Below are positions 1,778 to 58,752 of a stretch of 64,000 bases of DNA, in pieces. Position 1 is the first letter of the stretch; the number at the start of each line of letters is the position of its first letter. Below the pieces are notes generated by a model. The model searched no databases. It saw only the letters and a program-made list of their open reading frames with translations, and was not told where the DNA came from. The position numbers and the translations under genes were made by a program. The DNA is taken from positions 8,505 to 72,504 of the forward strand of contig CAYRNW010000011.1 of assembly GCA_964425745.1 (NCBI GenBank), written 5' to 3'. Source of the stretch: an uncultured Eubacteriales bacterium (lineage in GTDB: Bacteria > Bacillota > JAAYKD01).

Positions 1778-3043
1778 ATGAGTGCGAAGCATGTGATTGT
1801 GGTATCCTACGATGCCTTTGCCGCCGAAGACTGGTCTTTGGCGGCTTCTCTTCCCAATATGGCTCGTTTATTGGAAAAAGGAGCCTATTCGGACCAACTG
1901 CAAAGTGTGGATCCGAGTTTGACCTATGTTGCTCATACTACCATGGTTACCGGAGTTTCACCCCACCGGCATGGTATACTGCACAACAATCCCTTCCAGC
2001 CGTTTGTCGCTGAATCCGAGCAAGCTTGGCATTGGTTTCACAATCAAATTCAAGTACCGACGCTTTATGATCTTGTACAAGAACAGGGTGGGACGACGGC
2101 AGCGATCCTATGGCCGGTCACTGCAGGGGCTAAAATCAAGTATCATTTACCGGAAGTTCGTGCCATTGGCAAAGAGAATCAAATTTTAAAAGTTCTTCGA
2201 TATGGCAGTCCTTTCTACTGCCTCGATATGGAACGCCGCTTTGGTTCTTTGCGAAAGGGGATTGAGCAACCCAATCTAGATAACTTTATAGCCGCTGTTG
2301 CCGCTCACACACTTCGGACCAAGCAACCAAACTTGATGTTGATTCATTTTATTGAATTGGATGAGATGAAACACCACCATGGTACCCAGTCTGTGCAAGC
2401 AAAACGGGCCATTGTTAATATGGATGAACATTTGGGACAGCTCATCAAAGCTGCGGAAGAAGCGGGAATCTTGGATGAAACGGTTTTTGTAGTAATCGGA
2501 GATCATAGCCAGCTGGATTACCATACCAAAATCTATTTGAATCGTCATTTGCGTGAAATGGGAATCATTCTCGAGACAGCAACAGAAAAGACCTGGAAAG
2601 CTTGGTTTCAGAGCACTGGAGGTGGGGCTTATTTGCACTTTGCTCCCGGAGCAGAGGAGACCAAATCTATCCTATTGAAATGGTTGGAGGAGGTTTCTTT
2701 GGAATCGGATTTCGGTATTGAGCGCTTCTTTGAACTCTCAGGGTTGATTTTTGTTGAAGCTAAATCCGGATACTGTTTTGATGATGATTGGCAGGAGCCA
2801 AACGATCTTGTTCCCACTCGCGAAAGCACCACCGGTGCGACCCACGGTTATTCGAAGGAACGAGAGAACTACAGCTCGAATCTACTAGTATCGGGTCCGG
2901 GTATTCGAAATCATTCTAATCTTGGTCCGGTTCGCATGGTCGACATCGCCCCCACCTTGGCTGCTCTCTTTGAGCTACCCTTCTCATCGGAGGGGACGGT
3001 TCTCCGCCACGCTTTTTTGCCAAGTTATTACCAAAATCACTAA
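1778..3043 (+). CDS. Alkaline phosphatase superfamily nucleotide pyrophosphatase/phosphodiesterase
   Basis: VVSYDA, PSLTYVAHTTMVTG (Thr nucleophile), D..KH, GDHSQ, ATHGY and VDIAPT motifs. Confidence 0.85.
   Translation: MSAKHVIVVSYDAFAAEDWSLAASLPNMARLLEKGAYSDQLQSVDPSLTYVAHTTMVTGVSPHRHGILHNNPFQPFVAESEQAWHWFHNQIQVPTLYDLVQEQGGTTAAILWPVTAGAKIKYHLPEVRAIGKENQILKVLRYGSPFYCLDMERRFGSLRKGIEQPNLDNFIAAVAAHTLRTKQPNLMLIHFIELDEMKHHHGTQSVQAKRAIVNMDEHLGQLIKAAEEAGILDETVFVVIGDHSQLDYHTKIYLNRHLREMGIILETATEKTWKAWFQSTGGGAYLHFAPGAEETKSILLKWLEEVSLESDFGIERFFELSGLIFVEAKSGYCFDDDWQEPNDLVPTRESTTGATHGYSKERENYSSNLLVSGPGIRNHSNLGPVRMVDIAPTLAALFELPFSSEGTVLRHAFLPSYYQNH
2992..3033 (+). repeat. Family-A REP arm inside the 3' end of the phosphodiesterase gene
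   Basis: GGGGACGGTTCTCCGCCACGCTTTTTTGCCA closely matches the intergenic arm at 54467 (GGGGACGGTTCTCTGCCACGCATTTCTGCCA). Confidence 0.8.
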
Positions 3044-13058: not shown

Positions 13059-13071
13059 GACTTGGGGATTC

Positions 13072-13094
13072 TTGGGGACGGTTCTCTCCCCCTC
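13072..13094 (+). repeat. Family-A REP arm left of the RAYT gene
   Basis: TTGGGGACGGTTCTCTCCCCCTC, inverted relative to 14019-14037. Confidence 0.9.
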
Positions 13095-13234
13095 ATTTTA
13101 CCAAAGCGTTGCCAATTACACGGCGGCGCTTTTTTTGATCTTGATGTAAAAATAAAATGAAATAAATACAATCTTATGATATGATGTCCGAGATAGAGAT
13201 ATAGGGTTCAAGATAGAGAGAGGGAGGGAATACT

Positions 13235-14020
13235 ATGCCAAGAGATCAACGGCAGAGAAGTGAAAGTGGGATTTATCATATTGTGATGCGCGGAATTAAC
13301 CGTGCTGTTATTTTCAAAGATGAAGAAGATTGCAGTGTGTTTCTGCGTTATGTAGAAAAAGCAAAAGCAGAGGCGAAGTTTCAACTTTATGCGTATTGTT
13401 TGATGTCAAATCATATTCACTTATTATTGAAAGAGGGAGAAGAGGAGCTTGGAATCGCCTTTAGACGAATCGGTTCGGGGTTTGTAGGGTGGTACAATCG
13501 CAAATATGAGCGCTGTGGCCATCTTTTTCAAGATCGATTTCGCAGCGAGCCTGTGGAGAGTGAGCAGTACCTATTTACAGTTCTTCGATATATTCACCAA
13601 AATCCGGTAAAGGCAGGGGTTGCAAAGACCGTTCTTGAGTATCCCTGGAGTAGTATTCACGAGTATTGCTCAGCTGCCAAGCTATGCAACACGAATGATG
13701 CACTAAAATGGTATGAAAATTTAGAACCTTGCAAAAGTATAGAGGATTTTTTACGAAGCCAGGAATACGAAAGCTCGATAAAGGATTGGAACAATACAAA
13801 TTGGACGTATCAGAAAACCCTCGAATCGTATGAGTTCCTTCGAACGGCGACACCCTGGGAACAACGAGAACAGCTTTCCGAACAAGATCGATTTGAGTGG
13901 ATGAAAATTTTGATCAAGATGGAAGCACCGATTGCGAAGATCGTGCAATTAACAGAAATCAACCGTTGTTTTGTAGAAAAATCTGTTGCTGGAATTGGAA
14001 AAAGAGAGGAAAAATATTGA
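13235..14020 (+). mobile_element. REP-associated tyrosine transposase (RAYT / TnpA-Y1, HUH endonuclease)
   Basis: YHIVMRG, YCLMSNHIHLL (HUH), GHLFQDRF, YIHQNPVKAG (catalytic Tyr), YPWSS and a C-terminal HTH-like tail; flanked by inverted REP arms; no tnpB. Confidence 0.92.
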
Positions 14021-14037
14021 GGGAGAGAACCGTCCCC
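14019..14037 (-). repeat. Family-A REP arm right of the RAYT gene
   Basis: GAGGGAGAGAACCGTCCCC overlapping the TGA stop. Confidence 0.9.
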
Positions 14038-14181
14038 TAGGTAACTGACTTATGTCAGAAATACAATAAAAGTTTATGACAAATGACATAAACTAATGTT
14101 ATTTTGTAAAGGAATATTGTATTTATACCAAGAATTGACTAAAAAGCAAAAATTAACTTTACGAAAAATTTTACAAACACC

Positions 14182-22258: not shown

Positions 22259-22429
22259 GGGGACGGTTCTCTCCCCTCCAAATTTACCGTTTAATTACCA
22301 TATAATTATAATGCTAATGTATAATTAAAAAGCCCAGTTGATACATCGTTGTGATGTTTCAACCGGGCTTTTTCTATTGCTTGTATTTCCCATTTAATTG
22401 GTAAAAAACCAGGGGAGAGAACCGTCCCC
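22259..22429. repeat. Family-A inverted arm pair (171 bp) enclosing a terminator
   Basis: GGGGACGGTTCTCTCCCCT ... AGGGGAGAGAACCGTCCCC. Confidence 0.9.
22327..22373. terminator. Bidirectional intrinsic terminator
   Basis: AAAAAGCCC...GGGCTTTTT long hairpin between convergent genes. Confidence 0.8.
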
Positions 22430-34259: not shown

Positions 34260-34352
34260 TTGGGGACTGTTCTCTCTTGTTCTTGGGGACGGTTCTCTCC
34301 TTGCTGGTTTTGCCTTAAATCTGGTAAAAAACGAGGGGAGAGAACCGTCCCC
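34260..34352. repeat. 68-bp family-A REPIN (34285-34352) plus an extra upstream arm
   Basis: GGGGACGGTTCTCTCC...GAGGGGAGAGAACCGTCCCC; variant arm GGGGACTGTTCTCTC at 34262. Confidence 0.9.
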
Positions 34353-34743: not shown

Positions 34744-36420
34744 ATGCAACAACCATCAACACCTTTACAACTTTTCTTTCAATACGCCAAGCGCTATCGG
34801 GGCCGCGTGGTGCTCTTGACCCTGGTTTACCTGGTCACTACAGCTTTACTGGTGATCGCCCCTCAAATGCTCAGTTCCTTTATTGATCGTGTTTACAGCA
34901 ATGCAGCAACCACCGCCGTGCTTTTGGCTATCGTGTTCTACTTGGCTGCGGTTTTGGGTCGTTCGCTCATGAACGCATTATTGCAGATTCAGTTGGCTAC
35001 GGTCGGGCAATTGATCACGGATGAATATCGCCGCGACGTCATGCATCATTTTTTATCGTTAGACAGCCAACATTTAAGCGCATGGACCTCCGGCGAGGCT
35101 ATCACCCGCCTCGATGAAGACGTGCAAGGCCTTTTTCAATATTATTATATCCTCTTTTACAAACTCACCGGTAGCGGCATAGCTCTTGTAGGGATTTTAG
35201 TCGCCTTAGCAATGAAAAGTGGATGGCTTACAGCTGCGCTACTGATTGTTAGTCTACTGACCATCCTTGGGTTCAAGTGGATCCAAGACCGCGGTATTCC
35301 CAAATACGTGCGTAGGACCGCCGCCTCGGCTGTGTTCAACGGTAGTATGAAAGAATTACTCGATAATGCCACCACCTTACGCGCATTGCATGCAGAATCG
35401 TATGCTACCGCCACCCTGAAACGCAGCATGAAACATCGCTATTTTGAGAGCTTACCTGCCAATATGATGTATGCCAATCTTTGGAGCGCCTCGACCATTA
35501 TGCAAGCGTTGGTTGTCGCTGCCGGACTTTTCTTTGCACTCTTGCTTTGGACGAAGGGAACGATTACGATTGGCACTGCCTATTTAATCTATACCTACAG
35601 CGAACTGATTATCGCCCCCTTACAAGATTTTCGTAATTTTATGGGGAAAATGCAAGGCGCCATGGCTGGAATTCTTCGCACTCAAAACTTATTGGCTACA
35701 CCGGTATTGGAATTCAGCGGCAGCAAAGAGTTGCCCGATCAACCAATTTCTGTGACGATTGAGAACTTGAGCTTTGCTTATGCACAAGGCCCTGAGGTGC
35801 TGAAAGACATTAATCTTGAGCTGCCCGCCGGGGGAAGAGTGGGCATTATGGGTGAAACCGGTTGTGGAAAAAGCACCTTAATCAACCTGATTGCAGGCCT
35901 AAACCCCTATGAAAAGGGCTCGATTTGCCTAAACGGCATTGAACTCCGTGAAATCAAACAGGATAGCCTGCGTCAACGCGTCGCCTTCTGCACGCAACGA
36001 GTCCAGCTGATTCATGGGAGCTTGCGCGATAATATTGCCTTTTTCGATCAGAAATACACCGATGACGATCTCCTTCAGGCCATAGAAAACTTGCATTTGA
36101 GCGAATGGTTCCGGAAATTTCCGCAAGGATTAGACACGCCGCTGGAAATGGGGGAAGGCAACCTATCTTCCGGTGAGGCACAACTGATCACTCTCCTCCG
36201 TTTTGCTTTACGCGATCCACGCCTGGTGCTTTTTGATGAAATCACTTCCAATCTCGATGCCGCAGTGGAGCGTCATATGACCCGCGCCATTGAAGGGTTG
36301 AGCCAAGGTCGCACCGTCATCGCCATTGCGCATAATGCCAAATCATTGGATTGGATGGATACTATCGTCATCATGCAGGGTGGCAGATTCGTAGAAAAAG
36401 GAAAGGAGGCGGTCGTATGA
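34744..36420 (+). CDS. ABC exporter, permease-ATPase subunit 1
   Basis: TM domain plus GETGCGKST, LSSGEAQL, LFDE and IAH; GGAGG RBS. Confidence 0.9.
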   Translation: MQQPSTPLQLFFQYAKRYRGRVVLLTLVYLVTTALLVIAPQMLSSFIDRVYSNAATTAVLLAIVFYLAAVLGRSLMNALLQIQLATVGQLITDEYRRDVMHHFLSLDSQHLSAWTSGEAITRLDEDVQGLFQYYYILFYKLTGSGIALVGILVALAMKSGWLTAALLIVSLLTILGFKWIQDRGIPKYVRRTAASAVFNGSMKELLDNATTLRALHAESYATATLKRSMKHRYFESLPANMMYANLWSASTIMQALVVAAGLFFALLLWTKGTITIGTAYLIYTYSELIIAPLQDFRNFMGKMQGAMAGILRTQNLLATPVLEFSGSKELPDQPISVTIENLSFAYAQGPEVLKDINLELPAGGRVGIMGETGCGKSTLINLIAGLNPYEKGSICLNGIELREIKQDSLRQRVAFCTQRVQLIHGSLRDNIAFFDQKYTDDDLLQAIENLHLSEWFRKFPQGLDTPLEMGEGNLSSGEAQLITLLRFALRDPRLVLFDEITSNLDAAVERHMTRAIEGLSQGRTVIAIAHNAKSLDWMDTIVIMQGGRFVEKGKEAVV

Positions 36421-38291
36421 AACCAGTGAAAACGGAATCACGAACCTTTTTGGAGTTTAGTTTGAAGCTATTGGGGTATAAGAAATGGACCACTGTGGCG
36501 AACCTGTTTTGCAACAGCATCATCTTTTCTCATCAAGCAGCCGTCACCTACTTCATACGGCAGATTCTTAATAATTTTTCAGTGGACCCAGCCGATGCGC
36601 TGCGTAAAGCGTATCCGTATTTGATTGGCTTCATGGCAGTCGCCGGAGTTCGAGTGGTGGCGATCATGAGTTGTGCTGTTTTAGATGCCAAGCGAGCCTA
36701 TTTTTACCAAAACCGTATTCGTTTGAATGCGATGCAACATCTTATGCAAAAGCCCGATATTACGCAGGTGACGGGGAAGGCCAATCAAATTTTTGAAATC
36801 CTCGATGACGATATTCCGGTAGCAACCTTTCCGGTTGAATTGCTTACGGAAGCTTCTGGATATGCGGTGTATACCTTGATTGCGTTGTCCATGATGCTGA
36901 GCATCAACTGGCAGCTCACTCTATTCATTTTTGTGCCGCTTTCTGCTGCCATTTACGGGGTGCAACGTCTCTCGGAGCGGATGAAAGAACGGCGTAAGGT
37001 CAACCGCGAAGCTCATGATGCTGCTAGTGCTTTTATTGGTGATATTGCCGATGTGGCGATGTCGGTGAAATCGGCAGGAGCAAAAGAGGCAGTGTTGCAT
37101 CGTTACGACCAGGTTAACGGAGTGCGAAGGAGTGCAATTTTGCAGGAGAAAAGCTTTAATGAACGAGTTGAGCTCCTGCTTTCGGGTTCGGTGGCGCTGG
37201 GTTCCGCGGTGATGATGTTCATTGCGGCGCGCTTGTTGGCCGGTGAGAGCTTTGGCATTGGCGATTTCAGCTTTTTTATTGCTCACTTGTTTACCTTGTC
37301 GGAATGTGTGTATCGTGTTGTGGAGATTTATACTGAATCTCGCAAGGCAGAGGTATCCTACGAGCGGATATTAAGTGCCCTCGATTGCGAGCCAGAGCTT
37401 TTGACAAGGAAAAACGAGTTGGTGTTAAGGGAAGTGGTGGAAGAGGAGGGTGGATTGAAGGAGGATAAGGCGGAGGCGGTTGCCGATAAACTACGTGTAA
37501 TTACAGAGAAGGAACAAAGACCGCTCGATGCTGATGCAGGGCTGCTGAGTGGAAGTCCTACCCACACACAAGCTCTTACACAAGCGGCTGGAGAGACTCG
37601 AAACGACGAAAAAAAGGTTGCCCTCTTGCGGGTGCAAGACTTGACCTACACCTACACGGGCAACGATGGTTTTCGCGATGTTTCATTTGATTTGCATCCC
37701 GGGCAACTGACCGTGATCGCCGGTGGTATGGCATCCGGCAAATCCACCCTGCTTAGCACCCTGCTAAACCTCTTGCCTTACCAGTTGGGGACAGTTCTCT
37801 CCCCGTCAAAATTTCCAGAAAAATGGATTATAGGAGCTCCTCAACGCAGCGGTTTCTTTGCAACCGATCTTGAGACGAACCTGAAGTTGGGCCAGAAGCT
37901 GAGTGACGAGGAGATCGCGCGGGGACTGAACATTGCTGCGCTGCCGTCGTCTATCCCCTTGGCCACGGAAATTGGGGGAAGAGGAGATAAAATCTCCGGT
38001 GGGCAACGGCAAAGGCTGCTCATGGCGCGGGTTTTTGCACGGCCACAGCCGATCAAGGTGATTGATGATTGTGTCAGCGCCTTGGATGGCGAAACGCGGT
38101 TGTTGGTGTTGCAGCGAATCAGGGCACACCTAAAAAACAGCGGTGATGCGGTGGTGATTGCTACCAATGCTCAGAATTTTATGCAGCAAGCCGACCAAAT
38201 CATCTTTATGGAACGAGGATTGGTGAAGGGCAAGGGGACGTATGAGGAACTGCTCCGCGGCTATCCTGCTTTTGCTGAAATTGTGTCATAG
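36417..38291 (+). CDS. ABC exporter, permease-ATPase subunit 2 (degenerate NBD residues)
   Basis: ATGA overlap; GGMASGKST, ISGGQRQR, Walker B VIDD, and H-switch replaced (IATN). Confidence 0.88.
   Translation: MKPVKTESRTFLEFSLKLLGYKKWTTVANLFCNSIIFSHQAAVTYFIRQILNNFSVDPADALRKAYPYLIGFMAVAGVRVVAIMSCAVLDAKRAYFYQNRIRLNAMQHLMQKPDITQVTGKANQIFEILDDDIPVATFPVELLTEASGYAVYTLIALSMMLSINWQLTLFIFVPLSAAIYGVQRLSERMKERRKVNREAHDAASAFIGDIADVAMSVKSAGAKEAVLHRYDQVNGVRRSAILQEKSFNERVELLLSGSVALGSAVMMFIAARLLAGESFGIGDFSFFIAHLFTLSECVYRVVEIYTESRKAEVSYERILSALDCEPELLTRKNELVLREVVEEEGGLKEDKAEAVADKLRVITEKEQRPLDADAGLLSGSPTHTQALTQAAGETRNDEKKVALLRVQDLTYTYTGNDGFRDVSFDLHPGQLTVIAGGMASGKSTLLSTLLNLLPYQLGTVLSPSKFPEKWIIGAPQRSGFFATDLETNLKLGQKLSDEEIARGLNIAALPSSIPLATEIGGRGDKISGGQRQRLLMARVFARPQPIKVIDDCVSALDGETRLLVLQRIRAHLKNSGDAVVIATNAQNFMQQADQIIFMERGLVKGKGTYEELLRGYPAFAEIVS
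37785..37826 (+). repeat. Family-A REP arm within the ABC NBD coding sequence
   Basis: TTGGGGACAGTTCTCTCCCCGTCAAAATTTCCAGAAAAATGG, including spacer-like sequence. Confidence 0.8.
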
Positions 38292-38307: not shown

Positions 38308-38375
38308 GGGGACGGTTCTGTCCGGGGTGAAATTTCCTTAAATATGGAAAAAACCGAGGGGAGAGAACCGTCCCC
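38308..38375. repeat. 68-bp family-A REPIN
   Basis: Inverted arms between convergent genes; right end overlaps the TAG of 38375-39970. Confidence 0.9.
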
Positions 38376-40055: not shown

Positions 40056-40080
40056 AGGGGTCTGACCCCAAGTGCGAAAT
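40056..40080. repeat. Family-B palindrome (partial)
   Basis: AGGGGTCTGACCCCAAGTGCGAAAT. Confidence 0.75.
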
Positions 40081-42606: not shown

Positions 42607-42618
42607 TGTACGTTTCTT

Positions 42619-42914
42619 GGGGACGGTTCTCTGCCCCTTAAAAATGGAAGTTATATGGGAGAAAGACAACTTTGATAAGATGATTTTCCCTAAACTTTAT
42701 TAAATTGTTGCAGTAGCTTTATTATTGCTAATTCAACGCATCTAATTTTTAATCATTTGTTCCACGACGACTATTGTGGTTGTTGTTTATTAAGTGTCCG
42801 GACGGCCAGCCTATCCCTTTTTTGCAAAGCTAGTAACGCGTTGTCTGTCAGTTTGTCAGGAAATATGGATTGTGGTAAATAACTGTCAAAAAACGAGGGG
42901 AGAGAACCGTCCCC
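42619..42914. repeat. Family-A inverted arm pair (296 bp, AT-rich interior)
   Basis: GGGGACGGTTCTCTGCCCC ... GAGGGGAGAGAACCGTCCCC. Confidence 0.85.
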
Positions 42915-46150: not shown

Positions 46151-47670
46151 GTGAGAGTGTGAATGTGAAACCGAAAGCGAACCCGAACGCGAAAGCGAAT
46201 CCGAATGCGAAAGCAAATCCGAATCGCAAATTTTTGAGAGAAGAGAAGTTACCGCATTTCTTTTGCAGCGGTTGTGGCTGTGGGCAGGTGCTCAACTATT
46301 TCACCCAGGCGCTTGAGGCGTTGCAGATGGACGTGGAGAAGATGCTAACCATCGGTGGGGTGGGTTGCACGGCGCGAATGCCGGTTTATTTGAAGTCCGA
46401 CACCTTTCACGGGGTGCATGGGCGCACTTTGGCCTGGGCAACCGGAGTCAAGCTGCATAATCCAGAGATTCCCATTGTAATTTTCGCAGGCGATGGCGAC
46501 CTGGTTTCCATAGGTGGTAACCACTTTATTCATGCGGCAAGGCGGAATCTTGATGTGACGGTGATTATGGTCAATAACCTCAACTTTGCCATGACCGGAG
46601 GGCAAGTGGCGCCAACCACACCGGTGGGGTCCGTGACGATGACAACGCCGTATGGGAACGATGAACCGGCCTTCGATGTGGCGCAGTTGGCCATGGCGGC
46701 GGGTGCCACTCATGTGGAACGCTGGACAACTTCGCGGCCGATTCAATGTGAGCAGGCAATAAGGCGAGCACTGCAGCATAAAGGGTTTAGTCTCATTGAG
46801 ATTGTCAGCCAGTGTCCGACCCATTTTGGCCGTTATGCTTTGAAAAGTGGTGATCCGGGCAAACTTTTGCAGTGGATTCATCAAAATAGCTATTTGTTGG
46901 AACAAGCCGACCGCCTCACCGCGGAAGAAAAGCACAATAAACTCGCTTGCGGCATCTTCCGATTTCAAGGTGGGGACAGTCCCTCATTGAAAAATTTACA
47001 GGGTGGGGACAGTCCCCTCCTTGAAAAAAAGGAGGAAAGAGCTCGTAAACAGCAAGATGATGCCGCTCCCACCACCACATATAACACCGCAGTCGACCAA
47101 ATTTCAACTCTGCCGTACCCTCAACGCATTACCCTTTGCGGTATGGGCGGTCAAGGAATCATCTTAACCTCGGTCCTACTCGGCACCGCTGCGGTCACCT
47201 TAGCTGGCTTACACGCGGTCCAAACCCAATCCTACGGCAGCGAAGCTCGGGGGGGCCAGTGTCAAGCCGAGCTGATCATCGACCGCGAACCCATTCTATC
47301 GCCTGTGGCACAAAAAAAAGACCTGCTTTTGGCCATGTTTTCAGAAGCATATCACAAGTACATCCCCGATTTGAAAGAGGATGGTGTACTGGTCTACGAT
47401 ACCGATTTGGTGCAGCCCGAATCGCGCAAGGGAAAAAGTTACGGAGTGCCGGCAACACAGATGGCTGTGGGTCTCGGTAATCGAATGGCCGCCAACATGG
47501 TGATGCTGGGCTTTTTAGCTGAAATGTTCGGTGTTATCAGCGTGGAACATCTGGAACAAGTGGTGATCAGCGAAGTGGATGAACGATTCCGGGAGCTTGA
47601 CCTCAACGCAGTTCGCGCGGGAGTCGAATTTGCCGGACAAATCAAAGCGCAGGAAAGGGGAGAAGCATAA
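46147..47670 (+). CDS. 2-oxoacid:ferredoxin oxidoreductase beta-gamma fusion
   Basis: FCSGCG, HGRTL and TPP motif GDGD...NN; then gamma GMGGQG, SYGSEARGG and NMVMLG. Confidence 0.88.
   Translation: MSESVNVKPKANPNAKANPNAKANPNRKFLREEKLPHFFCSGCGCGQVLNYFTQALEALQMDVEKMLTIGGVGCTARMPVYLKSDTFHGVHGRTLAWATGVKLHNPEIPIVIFAGDGDLVSIGGNHFIHAARRNLDVTVIMVNNLNFAMTGGQVAPTTPVGSVTMTTPYGNDEPAFDVAQLAMAAGATHVERWTTSRPIQCEQAIRRALQHKGFSLIEIVSQCPTHFGRYALKSGDPGKLLQWIHQNSYLLEQADRLTAEEKHNKLACGIFRFQGGDSPSLKNLQGGDSPLLEKKEERARKQQDDAAPTTTYNTAVDQISTLPYPQRITLCGMGGQGIILTSVLLGTAAVTLAGLHAVQTQSYGSEARGGQCQAELIIDREPILSPVAQKKDLLLAMFSEAYHKYIPDLKEDGVLVYDTDLVQPESRKGKSYGVPATQMAVGLGNRMAANMVMLGFLAEMFGVISVEHLEQVVISEVDERFRELDLNAVRAGVEFAGQIKAQERGEA
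46174..46227 (+). repeat. 18-bp tandem repeat x3 encoding KANPNA
   Basis: AAAGCGAACCCGAACGCG / AAAGCGAATCCGAATGCG / AAAGCAAATCCGAATCGC. Confidence 0.85.
46963..47027. repeat. Two family-C palindromes in frame within the beta-gamma linker
   Basis: GGGGACAGTCCC cores at 46972 and 47005 (33-bp period) encoding FQGGDSPSLKN-LQGGDSPLLEK. Confidence 0.88.
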
Positions 47671-47864
47671 TGGTACATATCGATGAGCGACTCTGCAAAG
47701 GCTGTCGCTTGTGTGTGACAATTTGCCCCAAAAATGTGCTGGCGATGTCGCAACGAGTCAATAAAAAGGGGTATACTGTCGTGGAAGTGGCACACTCTGA
47801 GGCCTGCATCTCCTGCAAACTCTGTGAAAAAACCTGCCCCGACTTTGCCATCTATGTTGAATAA
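47670..47864 (+). CDS. 2x[4Fe-4S] ferredoxin (oxidoreductase delta subunit)
   Basis: CKGCRLCVTICP and CISCKLCEKTCP. Confidence 0.92.
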   Translation: MVHIDERLCKGCRLCVTICPKNVLAMSQRVNKKGYTVVEVAHSEACISCKLCEKTCPDFAIYVE

Positions 47865-47869
47865 GGGTT

Positions 47870-47989
47870 GGGGACGGTTCTGTCGATTAAGCTGGGGACG
47901 GTTCTGTCCCCCTGAACTTTGCCATAAAAAAGGAAAAAATCAGGCCGAGAGAACCGTCCCCAAGTCATTGAGGGGAGAGAACCGTCCCC
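47870..47989. repeat. Nested family-A REPIN (inner 68-bp unit 47894-47961 inside an outer arm pair)
   Basis: Two GGGGACGGTTCTGTC arms followed by two GAGAGAACCGTCCCC arms. Confidence 0.9.
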
Positions 47990-48009
47990 AAATAAAAGGA
48001 GGGTTGCTA

Positions 48010-49209
48010 ATGAAATCCAGTCTTCGATTGCAACAAATATCCGCTTCGGTCACGGTGGCGCTCAATGGAAAAGTGGTAGAAATGAAAGCTCGCGGCGAGG
48101 ATCTTGTTGCCCTCAATGCCGGTGAACCTGATTTCCCCACACCTTCACCCATTGTAGAAGCGTGCCGCATTGCCCTCGCTGAAGGCAAAACCAAATATAT
48201 CAATAATGCGGGTCTACCCGAACTGCGCAAATCCATAGCCCATCGTTTATCGACCGACCACAACGTTCGCTACACCCCACAACAAATCTGCGTTTCCACC
48301 GGTGCCAAGCAAGCCCTTAACAACGCTGTTCTAGCCGTGGTCAACCCTGGACAAGAGGTCATCATCCCTACACCCGCATGGGTCAGCTATGTGGAAATCG
48401 TTAAATTAGCAGGAGGCGTTCCGGTGTTGGTGCCGAGCAATGAAGTGGATGACTTCCGCCTCGACCTACTTGCCATCCGCCGTGCAATCACCGCCAGAAC
48501 CGTTGCTATCTTGATTAACAACCCGCATAATCCCACCGGCGCTGTATACACAAAAGAGGATTTGGTCGAGCTCGCCGACATCGCCTTGGAGCACAATCTC
48601 TGGGTGATTGCTGACGAAGTTTACGAAAAATTGGTGTATCACGATGCGAATCACACCTGTTTCAGTGGATTGTCGCCCGATGCCTACGGTCGCACCATCT
48701 TGGTCAACGGTTTTTCCAAGGCCTATTCCATGACCGGATGGCGCTTGGGCTACACTGCTGCCCCCTTATCCCTCGCCGCCGGCATCGATGCACTGCAAAG
48801 TCATATGACCAGCAACGCCACAACCTTCGGCCAATACGGTGCTTTAGAGGCGTTAGAAGTGCGCAATGACAATGGGATAGAGAAGATGCGGCTGCAATTT
48901 GAGGCTCGCCGGGATTACATGCTCCAGCGTTGGCAGCAAATCCCGAATATTTTTGTTGCTCCTACATCAGGTGCTTTCTACTTTATGCCCAATGTCTCAG
49001 CTTATTTCGGCAAGATGACAGAGGCGGGTAGTGTCATCGAAACCTCGGGGGATCTTTGCACCTATTTGTTGGAAGAAGGCAAGGTAGCGCTTGTGCCAGG
49101 CGAAGCTTTTTATGCACCATATCATTTGCGCGTATCCTACGCCAATTCCATGGAAAACTTACAGCGCGGCATGGACAGAGTCGAAGCTGCACTTGCAAAA
49201 TTGAAGTAG
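48010..49209 (+). CDS. Class I/II PLP aminotransferase (aspartate aminotransferase-like)
   Basis: GEPDF, GAKQAL, NNPHNPTG, DEVY and NGFSKAYSMTGWRLG; GGAGG RBS before ATG 48010. Confidence 0.92.
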   Translation: MKSSLRLQQISASVTVALNGKVVEMKARGEDLVALNAGEPDFPTPSPIVEACRIALAEGKTKYINNAGLPELRKSIAHRLSTDHNVRYTPQQICVSTGAKQALNNAVLAVVNPGQEVIIPTPAWVSYVEIVKLAGGVPVLVPSNEVDDFRLDLLAIRRAITARTVAILINNPHNPTGAVYTKEDLVELADIALEHNLWVIADEVYEKLVYHDANHTCFSGLSPDAYGRTILVNGFSKAYSMTGWRLGYTAAPLSLAAGIDALQSHMTSNATTFGQYGALEALEVRNDNGIEKMRLQFEARRDYMLQRWQQIPNIFVAPTSGAFYFMPNVSAYFGKMTEAGSVIETSGDLCTYLLEEGKVALVPGEAFYAPYHLRVSYANSMENLQRGMDRVEAALAKLK

Positions 49210-49231
49210 GGAACGAGGTTGGGACAAGGTT

Positions 49232-49299
49232 GGGGACGGTTCTGTCCTCTTTATTTTTTCCAATTTAGTGGCAATTTTCTAGCCGACAGAACCGTCCCC
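49232..49299. repeat. 68-bp family-A REPIN
   Basis: GGGGACGGTTCTGTC...GACAGAACCGTCCCC. Confidence 0.9.
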
Positions 49300-49365
49300 A
49301 AGAATTAGTCCCCAAGAATTTAAGAATCATATTTACCCAAACCATAATAAAAGGAGGAAATATTT

Positions 49366-49848: not shown

Positions 49849-49916
49849 GGGGACGGTTCTATCGACCGTTTTTTTGCCACTAAACTGGTAAAAATCGAGG
49901 GGAGAGAACCGTCCCC
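49849..49916. repeat. 68-bp family-A REPIN
   Basis: GGGGACGGTTCTATC...GAGGGGAGAGAACCGTCCCC. Confidence 0.9.
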
Positions 49917-50945: not shown

Positions 50946-53900
50946 CTATTTTTTTGCGGTTAGTTTCATTTCCCAGACGATTTTGGCGGTTTGTTCGTTC
51001 AAGATTTGGTTTTGCGGCTTGAGGGTGCCATCGGTGTAGCCGTTGAAGAAGCCAAGCGCCACCGCCTGCGCCATCCCTTTTTCCGCATAATCGCTAATCG
51101 TGGTTTGATCGGCAAACCCTTGCAAGTTGGCTGAATCCTCCTCAGGTAACAAATCCGCATTCCGCAAGGAAAAGCCTCGCAACAACATCGTCGCCGCATC
51201 TTGTCGGGTCACCGTATCCCCGGGCGCAAAGACGACATCGCTCCTGCCGTTAATGACCCCGCAGCGGTATGCCAACTCCATCGCTTGCCGGTCTGCATCC
51301 ACCAGATCAACATCGCCAAACGGGAAGCCCTGTCGCACCGCATCGGCCTCGGTCAACCCCAACGCGCGCACCACCGCACCGGCAAATTCGGCTCGCGTGG
51401 TTGAAACCCCGGCAGAGAACCGTCCCCAAGAATCCAAGTTCATGATTCCGGCGTTTACCACCGAAGAGACGTAGTTTTTGGACCAATCAGGAACTTCGGC
51501 AAAATTGGCAATGGTCACAGGATAGCGCACCGCAACGCCCGAAACTGCAACATTTCCTCTATACATGCCCATTTCCGTCACAAAATCCAAAGGATTCACT
51601 ACAAAACGATCCACACTGCGCAATTGCTCTAACTGGAAAAGCAAATCAAAATGCCGCACATCGCTCGGCAAATAGTCGTCGTAATGGTAGATTACCGGTG
51701 CCGGTGGGATCACGGAAGGATCTTTTAAAGCCACCCCTTCAATGCTCATGCCACTCACAACGTGCCGTGTTTGGAAGAGATCTTCGGTTTGCAACGCATC
51801 GGCCGTCTCTCCCTCCACCGCATAAACATACGACACGGGCACAGCGTTGAACTCGGGATGCCCACTCAAATTTTGCACCGCCAACAACCAATTCGGTTCC
51901 GAAACGGTCACCAGCTGATTCATCGGCCGTCCGGTAGAAGGATTCTTCACCACCTGCCACTCCTCATGATCCACCGTCGCCGGCACATCCTGCAAGCGTT
52001 CCTCCCATTTCCATAAGAAATGTGCCATGCTCACTGCACCTTCGGTAAGCGGAATTTGCGTCAAGGTCTGATTATTCGCTGTCGAAACATTCAGTTGCGG
52101 CTCGTTTGGCATCTCATACAGCAAGTCGGGGAAGGGAGGTCCCACGTAGTACTCATAATGAAGGGGATAGCGAACATCGGCAGCCGGAAATTGCACCGTG
52201 CCAATGTCTTGAATCACCTGGTCCTGGGCAAAACTTTGAGTATAACCTTCCGGCACTCGCCCTAAACTGACCTCTAAGTCCGCGCTGCCACTGTAGGTGC
52301 GATTGCCGTTGTGATTGACCGCCACCACATGTAAGGCCACCTGATGTTGGATGCCAATTGTTTTCCCAGCAAGGTCCAGAATCACCACCGGATAATCTTC
52401 GATCATCCGATGCACCGTCACATGATGACTGGTCAAATGGCCACCGGCACCGGTCGGTTCATAGGTTCCATAGAGGAAACCATCGACATTGACTTGCCAG
52501 CGCATTTCATGATTGGGCTTGACGTTATAGGCTTGGTTGATCATGGTATTGACGCCATCGAAACTGCCGTGCTGAAGAGGCGTATACTCGGTATCTACAC
52601 CATTGGCATGAATCCAGGCTTCTTCGGTCTGCTGGGTTAAAACACTGGTCGCATACAGCTTCACCGGACCCTGATATTTGATCCAACTTTGTGTTTGAAA
52701 ATCCAAATCGATGTTTGGCACATCCAAAACGGTCAAATCGGGTCCGCTCAAACCCGGGAAGGTCACTTTCTCTTCAAAAAAGTCAGCCCAGACGCGACTA
52801 TTGCCATAGAAATCCGATGTTTTCCCAAGTACCTTCTCAGCACCAAAAGGAGTAGAAGCTTGAATCAAATCGGTTTGACCCTGAAAACCGGGAGCATAAA
52901 TCAGAATCTGGTCGCCTTTTTGCACATCGAGCGTGGAAAGATCAACCGAAGCAGCCCCTTGTCCATCGGTTTGCACGGGAATCAGATGGTCCGGTGTGGC
53001 GGTACCTTGTTTGGGATCCTTGCCATTGCGATAATACTTGACCTCGAGGGTGCGTAAGGCAAAGGGCTCTTTATCACTGAAGGGAGGGGCGTTCGACGTG
53101 GTTGCACCGGCCATCCGTTTGGTCATGGCTGCCAAATTGAGGCGATCTTGATACACGCAGAGGCGGCTGAAGTAGAAAATCACGTCATCGGCGGGGTTAA
53201 AGCTTTTGTTGCGTTGTAAAAGGGGCTCCTGCAGCTTGAAAAGGTCGGTGGTGTCATCGAGGATGACCACAAAGGCATGCAAGACAAAATCGACCCCATA
53301 ACTCATGGTGTGCTCCTGGGTGGTGGCATAGGTGTAAAAGCCTAAGCGAAGCTGAGCACCGAAAACATCGACATCGAGGATTTCTAAATTGACCAACGGT
53401 GTGATGTAGAGACCGGCTTCAATGTTTCCCATGGGGTCACACTCGGCATCGGAGTAATGGTCGTAGTCGGTGTTAAGATGGAAAGAAGTGGGAACACCAA
53501 AGCTGGTGCCGCCGTGTACCGAGGCCGTAGCCAGGACTCCTTCAGATGCCTTTACAGTGAGCGTGATGTCGCCGTTGACGTCAACTACCAGATAAACCCC
53601 GATTTTGATGCTGCCGAGGCCGGGAATTGGTACCGAAATGGCAAAAACCGGTAGATACACCTCTTCGTTGAGGGTGACATCGAACATGAGGTTCAGTTCA
53701 ATAAACTGGGCGGCATCGACAAAACCGAACTCGTAGCCATCGAACAGCGAATATTCGGCAACCATGCCGGGGCTGACGCCTAAAGCTCCGCGCAGTGCGA
53801 GTTTAATGGTGTCGCTACTGTCGGTGTTGCCATAGGGATGGAAGGTGTAGGTGCCGTCGTATTCGTAGATTTTGGTGCCACGCTGATTGAATTTCATGCG

Positions 53901-54401
53901 GATGTCTTGCATGAGGCCGGGACCAGTACTGCTGAATAAGGTTTGGGTGGTCGTTTCACCGGGTGCTTGGGAGGCCTGTTGAGCAAGAAAGGCGTCGATG
54001 TCTATCCCTTTCACGTCGTATTCAACGATGTTGTCTTGCCTGGGAGCGATTTCTTGCCGGGGGATGCTGAACTCACGAAACAAATCGTACATGGAGGGTT
54101 TGGCAATTAAGTAGGCACCGGAATCGAGTTTGCGGAGGATTTTAGCGCTTTGTTGCAGGGTTTCATCCACTAAAATGTCACCAGGAGAAAATTCCGCACC
54201 GGGCCAAAGTAGCGTATTGCCGAGATGGGTGGCTGGGGAGAGGCTGAGAAGCTGAACCTTATCTTGATAGGTGTAGGTCACGTCTTGCACCAGCACCGGA
54301 GAGGTTTCTGTTAGTAGAGCGGCCTCAGCGTGCTGTGGTGGAGGGAGATAGATGGAGAGCAGGGATAGAAGAAGTGCTATGGAGATAAAACGCTTTTGCA
54401 T
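50946..54401 (-). CDS. Large secreted protein with three C-terminal SLH domains
   Basis: Signal peptide, about 950 aa unassigned region, SLH motifs (W...Y...GIM...TRAEFA; GVING...TRQDAA; GFFNGYTDG). Confidence 0.85.
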   Translation of the reverse strand: MQKRFISIALLLSLLSIYLPPPQHAEAALLTETSPVLVQDVTYTYQDKVQLLSLSPATHLGNTLLWPGAEFSPGDILVDETLQQSAKILRKLDSGAYLIAKPSMYDLFREFSIPRQEIAPRQDNIVEYDVKGIDIDAFLAQQASQAPGETTTQTLFSSTGPGLMQDIRMKFNQRGTKIYEYDGTYTFHPYGNTDSSDTIKLALRGALGVSPGMVAEYSLFDGYEFGFVDAAQFIELNLMFDVTLNEEVYLPVFAISVPIPGLGSIKIGVYLVVDVNGDITLTVKASEGVLATASVHGGTSFGVPTSFHLNTDYDHYSDAECDPMGNIEAGLYITPLVNLEILDVDVFGAQLRLGFYTYATTQEHTMSYGVDFVLHAFVVILDDTTDLFKLQEPLLQRNKSFNPADDVIFYFSRLCVYQDRLNLAAMTKRMAGATTSNAPPFSDKEPFALRTLEVKYYRNGKDPKQGTATPDHLIPVQTDGQGAASVDLSTLDVQKGDQILIYAPGFQGQTDLIQASTPFGAEKVLGKTSDFYGNSRVWADFFEEKVTFPGLSGPDLTVLDVPNIDLDFQTQSWIKYQGPVKLYATSVLTQQTEEAWIHANGVDTEYTPLQHGSFDGVNTMINQAYNVKPNHEMRWQVNVDGFLYGTYEPTGAGGHLTSHHVTVHRMIEDYPVVILDLAGKTIGIQHQVALHVVAVNHNGNRTYSGSADLEVSLGRVPEGYTQSFAQDQVIQDIGTVQFPAADVRYPLHYEYYVGPPFPDLLYEMPNEPQLNVSTANNQTLTQIPLTEGAVSMAHFLWKWEERLQDVPATVDHEEWQVVKNPSTGRPMNQLVTVSEPNWLLAVQNLSGHPEFNAVPVSYVYAVEGETADALQTEDLFQTRHVVSGMSIEGVALKDPSVIPPAPVIYHYDDYLPSDVRHFDLLFQLEQLRSVDRFVVNPLDFVTEMGMYRGNVAVSGVAVRYPVTIANFAEVPDWSKNYVSSVVNAGIMNLDSWGRFSAGVSTTRAEFAGAVVRALGLTEADAVRQGFPFGDVDLVDADRQAMELAYRCGVINGRSDVVFAPGDTVTRQDAATMLLRGFSLRNADLLPEEDSANLQGFADQTTISDYAEKGMAQAVALGFFNGYTDGTLKPQNQILNEQTAKIVWEMKLTAKK
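51411..51434 (-). repeat. Family-A REP arm within an SLH motif
   Basis: GGCAGAGAACCGTCCCCAAGAATC (+ strand), matching the arm plus the usual AAGA flank. Confidence 0.85.
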
Positions 54402-54662
54402 GAACCATCATCCTTTCACCTCGAATAGTTTAATATTCGACAAAATCGGACAGACTTCCTTTTCTTGGGGACGGTTCTCTGCCACGCATTTCTGCCATTA
54501 AATTACCAGTCAAAGCAGTCTCATGAGCGTTACCGAATCGTCAACCGAATCTTTAGCCGAAGGATTTTTTTGGAGGGTGGTTAGACTTCAGCATGCTATT
54601 TTTTTAGTTTCAAGAAATACGACGTGAATTAACACGATTAGATTGACGCTATGGGATGCACA

Positions 54663-55544: not shown

Positions 55545-55741
55545 TAATGAAGTTGAAAATTAAGCCTACAGAAACCTAAACTCGGGTGCAGTGAACTTGG
55601 ACGAAGTTTAAATCGTAGAGAATAGATTTTGAATGGGACAACAGCTTGAGGGGCGTGAAAAATTTTTCGGAAAAGAAGCTTGAATGGAAAATAACTGGAT
55701 AAAAAGCGGGGGAGAGAACCGTCCCCAACATGGAGGAACCT

Positions 55742-57905: not shown

Positions 57906-57940
57906 ATTTTCAAGGTGGGGACAGTCCCCACCTTGAAAAT
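57906..57940. repeat. Perfect family-C palindrome
   Basis: ATTTTCAAGGTGGGGAC-A-GTCCCCACCTTGAAAAT. Confidence 0.9.
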
Positions 57941-57947
57941 TTGAGTT

Positions 57948-58015
57948 GGGGACGGTTCTCTCCTTCGGTTTTATTCCAATAAAATGGTATAATGAAGGGG
58001 TAGAGAACCGTCCCC
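57948..58015. repeat. 68-bp family-A REPIN
   Basis: Inverted arms; spacer contains TGGTATAAT. Confidence 0.9.
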
Positions 58016-58120
58016 AAGAAAGATAAGAATGCGATGAGAACATGCTGTTCACGGTGGATTGGAGCGACTTGGATTTAGAAGTTTAAGTGTATAGAGAAGT
58101 TGTAAATAAGGGGGACTTTT

Positions 58121-58684: not shown

Positions 58685-58752
58685 GGGGACGGTTCTCTCT
58701 TTCGATTATTTACCAGTAAAATGGTATAATTTGAGAGGAGAGAACCGTCCCC
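58685..58752. repeat. 68-bp family-A REPIN
   Basis: Inverted arms; spacer contains TGGTATAAT. Confidence 0.9.

Follow-up and report, generated by a model that had tools for sequence, protein, structure and literature searches.

How can part of a repetitive extragenic palindromic (REP) element come to lie inside a protein-coding gene and leave the length of the protein unchanged? The question is raised by a 64,000-nucleotide stretch of contig CAYRNW010000011.1 of an uncultured Eubacteriales bacterium (hereafter the window), in which an open reading frame (ORF) on the minus strand (50946..54401) encodes a 1151-aa protein (P0001) with three C-terminal SLH repeats (Pfam PF00395). Within the first of these repeats, 24 nt are a solo copy of one arm of the main REP element of this genome, which flanks, and presumably serves, a gene for a REP-associated tyrosine transposase (RAYT). 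An initial annotation of the window had proposed that this arm was written over resident codons rather than inserted, in a process driven by the RAYT. The sequence comparisons described here support a length-neutral overwrite of resident codons and indicate that the same pattern extends to other genes of the genome.

A REP arm in the coding sequence of the SLH protein

The solo arm is an exact match to the 24-mer TTCTTGGGGACGGTTCTCTGCCGG on the minus strand at 51409..51432 and is read as the codons GAT TCT TGG GGA CGG TTC TCT GCC; the encoded peptide DSWGRFSA sits within the protein segment GIMNLDSWGRFSAGVSTTR. The initial annotation had identified both the arm and the peptide correctly and placed them 2 nt away, at 51411-51434. 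The arm includes, at 51416-51427, the 12-nt core GGGGACGGTTCT, which is the commonest 12-mer of the 2.74-Mb, 43.5% G+C genome (G000) and is present there in 124 exact copies. Seven further sites in the window match the 24-mer at 2-3 mismatches, with 0.00 expected (100 shuffles). The arm-bearing SLH repeat 1 (residues 970-1007; 51381..51494, minus strand; PF00395 profile positions 8-44 of 44) is the weakest of the three, with a score of 21.6 bits (cut-off 20.8) compared with 33.1 and 35.6 bits for repeats 2 and 3. From GIMN... to ...TTRAEF, a stretch that includes the arm, the alignment of the three repeats is gap-free, as had been stated initially; the accompanying statement that the arm keeps a G-x-F pattern is only partly borne out, since repeats 1, 2 and 3 read GRF, VVF and GTL, respectively, and share it loosely.

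Only one arm is present at this site: the closest other core is 1.5 kb away, the copy does not form a whole palindromic unit, and the surrounding 80 nt fold no better than shuffled sequences (z -0.25). The two best matches to the SLH arm among the 123 other exact cores (22/24 identical) lie 3 and 8.8 kb from it, at 54462..54485 (plus strand, just upstream of the start codon of the SLH gene and inverted relative to the in-gene arm) and at 42614-42637; by chance, both top matches would belong to the 16 arms located less than 9 kb away with a probability of 0.016, a value computed post hoc. Another solo arm, 1.3 kb upstream of the gene (55715..55726, minus strand), is kept in two closely related loci, L019 and L020. 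The region upstream of the SLH gene in L019 additionally contains a unit of ~75 nt with an arm of its own (L019:2800-2930 compared with window 54462-54540), a tandem duplication of a half-element which is missing in the window and in L020.

Among the genomes of 40 relatives there is no full-length orthologue of the SLH protein, the matches being confined to the SLH repeats. The protein collection contains 23 full-length orthologues, one with 93%, three with 69% and the others with 45-52% identity; one of the 23 carries the name of Papillibacter cinnamivorans. None of these 23 (24 aligned proteins) shows a gap at the arm, that is, the host protein is not lengthened by the element, in agreement with the 12 of 12 in-gene cores discussed in the next section. 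The aligned SLH motif is L-D-x-x-G-[RNS]-F, in which L989, D990, G993 and F995 are invariant.

The codons at this site were read from the DNA of 19 loci. L019 (96% amino acid identity) has a 24-mer identical to the SLH arm, and L020 (93%) reads GCT TGG GGA CGG TTC TCC, with the core intact; the closest arm-free orthologue, L013 (71% amino acid identity), reads GGA GCG GGG CGT TTT GCG GTG, and in the group with 45-52% identity the codons are unrelated to the arm. With the arm, S/A-W takes the place of A/G-A/G at the two x residues of the motif, and S-A that of A-V directly behind F. Arms around the SLH gene are found in both L019 and L020 and in none of 11 other loci checked. Because the orthologues align without gaps and the arms are confined to this genome, L019 and L020, the SLH arm was gained in an ancestor shared by these three, with the length of the gene unchanged. 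The copy might have survived because variation is tolerated in this SLH repeat at the positions hit, namely the x-x of L-D-x-x-G-R-F and the next two residues behind F. The stretch is contained in 24 public runs. Contigs from four runs of four studies, representing strains 1-10% diverged, cover the SLH gene and break at the repeat; one X10 contig bridges the SLH arm, and among the 40 of 336 strain differences that are listed none lies inside 51409-51432.

In-gene cores and their core-free orthologues

The 124 exact cores of the genome are distributed such that 90 lie outside ORFs of at least 200 aa, 9 near the ends of such ORFs and 25 deep inside them (at least 60 nt from the ORF boundary). 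The extragenic placement typical of REPs thus fits the family overall and does not fit the in-gene subset, to which the SLH copy belongs. Orthologues were sought in relatives from the same genus (G001 and G002) and the same family (G003-G005), all of which are, like G000 itself, metagenome-assembled (54 to 220 contigs); G001, G003, G004 and G005 contain no exact core genome-wide. At 12 of the 12 deep in-gene cores compared with orthologues without the core, the net length change is 0. The respective genes encode the SLH protein, Dxs, FtsY, peptidase S58, ETF-alpha, ClpB, PknB, an AMP-binding enzyme, a histidine kinase, GH20, a permease and a metallophosphoesterase. As indicated by Pfam matches, in-ORF cores often lie in ordinary genes, for example in the TPP-binding GDGS of DXP synthase, the PASTA domain of PknB and the GDGS of peptidase S58, as well as in ETF-alpha, FtsY, the AMP-binding enzyme, the histidine kinase, GH20, the permease, the metallophosphoesterase, GNAT and DUF3841 and at the C-terminal ends of ClpB, CitG and a phosphodiesterase (window position 2992).

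The codons at these sites differ from those of the core-free relatives. In Dxs, GGG GAC GGT TCT of G000 and G002 corresponds to GGT GAT GGC TCC in G001, where the codons at the peptidase S58 core are GGT GAT GGA TCA; in PknB, GAG GGG ACG GTT CTA corresponds to GAA GGA ACC GTA TTA in G001. Similarly, AGA ACC GTC CCC in GH20 corresponds to AGA ACC GTA CCA in a relative, and AGA GAA CCG TCC CCA in FtsY to AAA GAA CCT TCT CCT, which includes a K-to-R change. In the invariant motifs (Dxs, S58, PknB), only synonymous positions are changed, and for at least 5 of the 12 genes G001 already encodes the peptide, the change amounting to 2-5 synonymous positions. The peptide itself is changed in the SLH protein, ETF, ClpB, the AMP-binding enzyme, the kinase, the permease and the metallophosphoesterase, at positions that are variable among the relatives. 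In several in-gene copies, the match to the arm consensus extends past the core to 17-20 nt. Overwriting as opposed to insertion, the reading initially proposed, is borne out by the lack of gaps both in the 23 SLH orthologues and at the 12 deep in-gene cores; the orthologue alignments contain no insertion with a compensating deletion, and identical codons are not found in the relatives without the core (G001, G003, G004 and G005).

Two more arms had been reported initially to coincide with conserved Gly codons. One of these is an exact core at 2992..3003 (plus strand), in the part of gene 1778..3043 (type I phosphodiesterase) that encodes the C-terminal tail (EGTVL), with the stop following 13-17 codons later; the core is shared with G002, and the Gly is indeed also present in the orthologues from G002, G001 and G003. 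The alignment of this tail with G001 is gap-free but is a weak local alignment with 46% identity, and G002 lacks one codon, two codons upstream of the core. The other arm, reported at 37785, does lie in an ABC transporter gene (36351..38291) and is located at 37787..37798 (plus strand), within the ABC_tran domain (LGTVL); its core, GGGGACAGTTCT, has one mismatch, and the copy matches the arm consensus at 20/21 positions. No orthologue of this transporter was found in G001-G005 at E<=1e-40.

An all-or-none distribution over permitted coding sites

The ORF set, made without a gene caller, comprises 1786 ORFs of at least 200 aa and covers 83% of the genome. A permitted site was defined as one where the ORF protein sequence can be encoded with the core in one of the six frames. 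There are 92 such sites, of which 35 carry the exact core, 22 in the orientation of the gene and 13 in the opposite one, compared with 0.34 expected from codon usage (Poisson P ~1e-57); this zero-distance class includes sites where the core itself altered the protein. The other 57 permitted sites fall at Hamming distances 1-6 in numbers of 3, 7, 17, 17, 9 and 4, where codon usage predicts 2.2, 9.0, 18.0, 18.2, 8.4 and 1.2, and their mean distance from the core is 3.60 observed versus 3.44 expected. Neither an excess of near matches nor a shift toward the motif is detectable among these 57 sites, so that the distribution consists of the background plus a spike at zero and is all-or-none. Among GDGS tetrapeptides, 7 of 17 carry the exact 12-mer (0.045 expected); in the core-free G003, the GDGS of Dxs matches 11 of the 12 nt of the core by chance.

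Age and maintenance of the in-gene cores

The G002 assembly, which is 80% complete, contains 53 exact cores. All alignable in-gene cores of G002 (~13) occupy the orthologous site in G000 and are identical at 12/12 positions, within flanks that are 79-99% identical. The common sites are in GH20, DUF3841, FtsY, an ORF on C17 (two cores), an ORF on C9, the kinase, Dxs, ClpB, PknB, the phosphodiesterase, GNAT and the AMP-binding enzyme. It follows that the cores were already in these genes before G000 and G002 diverged. The writing looks ancient because every alignable in-gene core of G002 is common to G000 and, with all sites common to both species, there is no before-and-after pair in near-identical flanks that would show a block change.

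In 12 genes, 54 of the 56 codons that overlap the cores are identical between G000 and G002, compared with 2269 of 3312 (68.5%) other codons for the same amino acid (P=2e-7, or 1e-6 when three near-identical genes are left out; both values are approximate, the sites within one genome pair being kin). A continuing force therefore holds the in-gene cores unchanged at the DNA level. One-mismatch sites number 13 in G002, barely more than the 9 hits at 0 or 1 mismatch of a reversed-pattern control. Among 11 of these sites, 4 resemble chance matches that are drifting, and 5 show one and the same variant in both species; of the remaining two, one is exact in G000 and imperfect in G002, and the other carries a single mismatch in both species, though not the same one. 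The variant AGGGACGGTTCT, which is among the 5, is seen in genes more than once (C17:31234, C13:69412, C1:190294 and C19:705). Its conservation between G000 and G002 at C17:31234, in a gene of 80% identity, suggests that the first G of the core is dispensable and that the effective core may be 11 nt long.

The REP family and its RAYT gene

The repeats belong to a genuine REP/RAYT system. The window contains 28 exact and 2 one-mismatch copies of the core (search at up to 1 mismatch; 0.26 expected). The arm consensus is (C/G)TTGGGGACGGTTCTCTCC(C), with the highest conservation on GGGACGGTTC. Nineteen inverted pairs of cores at a spacing of 54-57 nt delineate elements of ~72 nt, and complete elements fold as single-stranded DNA far more stably than shuffled sequences; the term arm used in the initial annotation is accordingly apt. 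The RAYT gene (13235..14020, plus strand) encodes a 261-aa protein that scores 81.4 bits against NF047646 (cut-off 80) and 47.4 bits against PF01797 (cut-off 23) and matches the structure of Escherichia coli TnpA-REP (4er8) with E=1e-5, the HIH and YIHQNP motifs being aligned to HMH and YIYINP, respectively. This gene is flanked by an arm on its 5' side (13069..13092, plus strand; core at 13074) and by an inverted arm on its 3' side that extends over the stop codon (14019..14041, minus strand; core at 14026). In G007, a genome of another family, a RAYT homologue (C2:100517-100942) has the same core on both sides (100134+/101053-), and the RAYT homologue in G009, of that family as well, is likewise flanked by this core. 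Within the genus, G000 and G002 have both a RAYT homologue and the core, and G001 has neither; it is from this co-occurrence that the RAYT may be surmised to drive the overwriting of genes, as had been proposed initially.

The family is strongly clustered around its RAYT gene. The contig that includes the window (C11) carries 28 of the 124 exact cores, or 3.85 per 10 kb, compared with 0.37-0.51 per 10 kb on the large contigs C1, C2, C4 and C9 (0.37 on C1). Solo exact cores, with no other core within 400 nt, number 37, including 17 deep in ORFs. The solo copies are not accompanied by a partial hairpin or a second arm, and their orientation is biased neither toward a gene strand nor, relative to GC skew, toward a replication strand (9 vs 8 in genes, 13 vs 7 outside ORFs). 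Local hairpins formed by inverted flanks of 5-7 bp at the solo cores of Dxs and the AMP-binding gene in G000 were considered and dropped as chance occurrences, without a formal test; the inverted flanks of the Dxs core are absent in G002, and most other in-gene sites have none. Intergenic arms differ between close relatives by insertions and deletions (indels) of whole units, whereas the in-gene copies never do. An 18-mer arm scan of all species genomes gave 31 stretches, with ~17 expected by chance; 12 apparently belong to G002, a few to other Eubacteriales, and the rest are single matches in unrelated phyla, so that the scan added no lineage for comparison.

Complete hairpins in the window, all on the plus strand, are present at 49226..49305 (~72 nt; arms 49232 and 49288, pair spacing 56; fold -20.5 kcal/mol, z -6.5), 57942..58021 (arms 57948 and 58004; -24.7 kcal/mol, z -8.5), 49849..49916 (arms 49849 and 49905; 1 kb downstream of the SLH gene), 38308..38375 (arms 38308 and 38364) and 58685..58752 (arms 58685 and 58741). 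A hairpin with an extra degenerate arm spans 34262..34352 (plus strand; arms 34262, 34285 and 34341), and a nested double element (47870..47989, plus strand; arms 47870, 47894, 47950 and 47978) lies upstream of an aminotransferase gene. The ORF 47734..49209 reads through these four arms (GWGRFCRLSWGRFC..., window 47734-48010); the aminotransferase most likely starts near 48011 (MKSSLRL...), and the first ~90 codons of this ORF are likely noncoding. Wider inverted arm pairs occur at 22259..22429 (159-160 nt apart; no strand assigned), 42619/42903 and 62188/62348.

Other repeats are present in the same genome. A second palindromic family, GGGGTCWGACCCC, with 47 copies, flanks the second RAYT gene of the genome (C18:2900-4100) and is found in the window at 40057, 40957, 40990, 50918 and 60260, one copy being just past the SLH stop codon. 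A third palindromic family, TTTCAAGGTGGGGACAGTCCCCACCTTG, is located at window 46966-47017 and 57911-57929; a palindrome related to it flanks the RAYT homologue of G002 (L104). Outside the window, a CRISPR-like repeat with the core CACCCCCACATGCGTGGGGTAG occurs 17 and 24 times on contigs C32 and C35.

In the more distant genomes, the shared motif is found in other structural contexts. In G007, the same 12-mer lies in the loop of the short hairpin GCGAATA-TTGGGGACGGTTCTAAT-TATTCGC (L152-L165), and in G003 and G005 the related GGGGACGG, which is also common to G007, lies in the loop of TGTGCCAA...TTGGCACA; the part common to these genomes is the single-stranded loop motif and not the stem. On contig C1 of G005, solo REPs are segregated by orientation, with 16 consecutive plus-strand copies at 2.818-2.899 Mb and almost exclusively minus-strand copies at 0.463-0.484 Mb, as expected if insertion depends on the direction of replication.

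Origin of the in-gene copies

The explanation that we favour, with confidence just short of even, is templated, length-neutral replacement followed by constraint at the DNA level. Under this scenario, in the ancestor of this genome, L019 and L020, an arm of ~19-22 nt would have replaced an equal length of codons, in register, by way of a template-directed, length-neutral patch and not an insertion. The change would have come as one templated block, with a REP copy as the template and either the RAYT or template switching at REP hairpins as the agent. The same process could have left at least two dozen other solo cores in genes, with the rewriting at invariant protein motifs confined to synonymous positions; the written cores would then have been held unchanged, either as bound or recognised sites or through the rewriting of decayed copies. 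The all-or-none pattern across the genome fits block writing better than gradual drift and, given that there is no near-match excess and that the neutral expectation is ~0.3 sites, templated all-at-once replacement appears to be the simplest origin. The consensus matches of 17-20 nt and the nearby best-matching arms also support templated replacement. Whether the targets were weakly similar to the arm, as the initial annotation held, cannot be told apart from survivorship, in that any tolerated event must already fit the protein, a point made in that annotation as well. The most far-reaching form of this proposal, in which the REP/RAYT system, or replication at its hairpins, writes an arm of 12-20 nt over unrelated DNA with no change in length, two dozen genes are recoded, invariant cofactor-binding motifs included, and the sites then become conserved signals, is tentative and, taken as a whole, less likely than not.

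Several observations weigh against templated replacement. An identity of 12 nt falls short of what ordinary RecA-mediated conversion requires. The closest arm-free orthologue of the SLH protein (L013) is only 71% identical, and its differences within the arm, at least 8 in number, are not above the local background (30/60 nt identical); an outgroup at this distance is too distant to tell whether the arm changes came together. The ORF set is crude, and some of its ORFs are too long and run across intergenic elements, whose cores are then counted as in-ORF. No new in-gene core since the split of G000 and G002 was found among the ~13 alignable sites, and 5 of the 11 one-mismatch sites of G002 carry the same variant in both species, uncorrected. 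Overwriting alone leaves the synonymous-site conservation unexplained, so that a second force must be invoked. Solo in-gene copies amount to 0 of 20 in G007, which has the same core, and to 0 of 28 sampled (of 122) in G003 and G005 with their own REP, and the GGGGTCWGACCCC and CAAGGTGGGGAC families of G000 show only read-through or whole-hairpin cases in genes. Because these three other RAYT/REP sets are devoid of solo in-gene copies, such copies are not a general property of RAYTs, and to this extent the notion of a RAYT-driven process falls short. A biochemical precedent for patch writing by a RAYT was not found in the portion of the RAYT literature considered here (PMC8266576).

Stepwise substitution under motif-level drive or selection is the main and a serious rival, appreciably below an even chance but well within the range of plausible explanations. 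Here, the core (~11 nt, GGGACGGTTCT) would be a DNA signal that is favoured wherever coding allows, built by stepwise point substitutions and kept by purifying selection. It could be, for example, the binding site of a RAYT-type protein or a preferred uptake or recombination signal, the SLH copy being one such site. In favour of this possibility, the retention of 54 of the 56 core codons at synonymous sites is the kind of argument put forward for selection on HIP1 in the relevant part of PMC5861425. The in-gene sites show no turnover since the G000/G002 split, and both orientations are used without replication-strand bias (9 vs 8). Residues changed at variable positions only and conserved motifs changed synonymously, as Findlay and Redfield also describe, in the part of their study considered, for uptake sequences (PMC2817400). 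The flank at +12 to +16 matches the consensus in ~11-13 of 21 in-gene copies, even past an interior mismatch, and single-nucleotide differences between the species are seen at C27:8343 and at C13:69412 (a different mismatch in each). Drive also accounts for G007 and the other REP families without in-gene copies. It does not account for the all-or-none distribution over the permitted sites, where a graded drive that fixed 35 of them should have moved the others, yet the 57 unconverted ones are not shifted (3.60 vs 3.44). Neutral arrival at the exact 12-mer predicts 0.34 sites, yet at least 5 of the 12 genes changed 2-5 synonymous positions. Furthermore, the density of the core, 1 per 22 kb, and its strong clustering (C11 versus C1) are unlike those of uptake sequences. 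Finally, ComEC (PF03772) is present in all 6 of the 6 genomes searched, the core-free G001 included, so that competence does not separate the genomes.

The third possibility, ordinary transposition-type insertion of an arm followed by an equal-length compensating deletion, with only the in-frame, length-restoring outcomes surviving, appears highly improbable. Intragenic REP insertions are known in other bacteria, as covered in part of PMC3733652, the intergenic copies in this clade vary by whole-unit indels, and G002 lacks one codon beside the phosphodiesterase core. Against these stand the lack of any gap at all 12 of the deep in-gene cores compared, the solo copies without an adjoining partial hairpin or second arm, and the peptides of Dxs, S58, PknB and GH20, which are those of the core-free relatives, with third codon positions alone differing. 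An unchanged peptide with rewritten third positions is impossible to obtain in this way, and the scenario is thus effectively excluded. Mere coincidence, with the codons for the SLH motif L-D-x-W-G-R-F-S happening to resemble the arm, has a negligible probability: G-R-F is ancestral in the 69-71% identical orthologues and fixes ~7/12 nt of the core, and the G003 Dxs shows that 11/12 nt can arise by chance, but an exact 24-nt match has an expectation of 0.00 in 100 shuffles, 35 exact cores at permitted sites far exceed the expected 0.34, and G001, G003, G004 and G005 have none.

Comparison with known systems

The known part of this system is an ordinary REP/RAYT family, whereas the solo, length-neutral, synonymously conserved in-gene copies fall outside its description. 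As in the characterised systems (REPtrons, the REPINs of Pseudomonas fluorescens, and E. coli REP with TnpA-REP), there is a high-copy short repeat with hairpin doublets, a single-domain Y1 HUH transposase which passes the RAYT equivalog model and has inverted copies on both sides, and a family common to related RAYT genes in other genomes. Unlike in these systems, 25 of the 124 cores are solo half-sites without a hairpin, deep in ORFs; REPs and REPINs are described, in the pertinent part of PMC3116915, as extragenic. There is also no GTAG terminal tetranucleotide, and CGTC, a candidate tag, is found inside the core (..AACCGTCCCCAA). In the part of the account of Di Nocera et al. considered here, no RAYT gene is flanked by CGTC units (PMC3733652); the core that flanks the RAYT gene here (window 13069-14041) contains CGTC and would be an exception if it is of the CGTC type. 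The RAYT biochemistry covered in part of PMC8266576 consists of cleavage and strand transfer at hairpin REPs. Intragenic REPs and the Rickettsia palindromic elements (RPE) are, in the portion of PMC3733652 that concerns them, whole-unit or dimer insertions that add 20-30 or more residues. They resemble the present case in that repeat-derived sequence is translated in functional, conserved proteins; here, by contrast, nothing is added, a single arm (12-24 nt) is involved, and the protein is unchanged at conserved motifs.

Template-switch (quasipalindrome) mutagenesis produces clustered templated changes at constant length, usually with hairpin-forming repeats as templates, and is known to act over tens of bases, from one arm of an imperfect palindrome to the other; in the present case, 3 kb separate the in-gene arm from a candidate template, and most others lie at far greater distances. 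Uptake sequences also occur as inverted pairs between genes, and we know of no sequence-specific uptake in this phylum. The uptake sequences of Pasteurellaceae (USS) and Neisseriaceae (DUS) resemble the core in being motifs of 9-12 nt, used in both orientations, that arise in genes by substitution and are placed at variable residues or encoded synonymously, and they number 765 to 1,892 per genome (all from part of PMC2817400). The 124 copies found here are ~6-15 times sparser, clustered near the RAYT gene and tied to a transposase, and, unlike USS and DUS, show no near-match excess at permitted sites. HIP1 (GCGATCGC) of cyanobacteria is similarly an over-represented oligomer conserved at orthologous ORF sites, of unknown function and, in the part of PMC5861425 considered, subject to the same debate over selection versus biased repair. 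It differs in being an 8-nt palindrome, which in some genomes exceeds one copy per gene, that is outside any hairpin transposon family and has no associated transposase. A limited keyword search of the literature, which did not extend to the supplementary list of intragenic REPs in PMC3733652, where zero-length cases might occur, retrieved no report of REP cores replacing codons without length change.

Implications

The mode of REP spread is still unsettled, and in this genome a fifth of the core copies are in-gene solo half-sites that replace codons base for base. If the writing is templated, REP/RAYT systems would have a mode of spread without indels that is invisible to standard detection of mobile elements, and silent recoding of genes would be possible; should overwriting prove true, it would represent natural templated sequence writing, distinct from both cut-and-paste and copy-and-paste transposition. 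If, alternatively, the core is a selected signal, it would be the first motif similar to uptake sequences or HIP1 that is tied to a domesticated transposase and would offer a direct way to approach the function of RAYTs in their hosts. In either case, one enzyme, one 12-mer and ~35 in-gene targets, together with a genome of the same genus lacking both the core and a RAYT homologue, constitute a testable set of sites.

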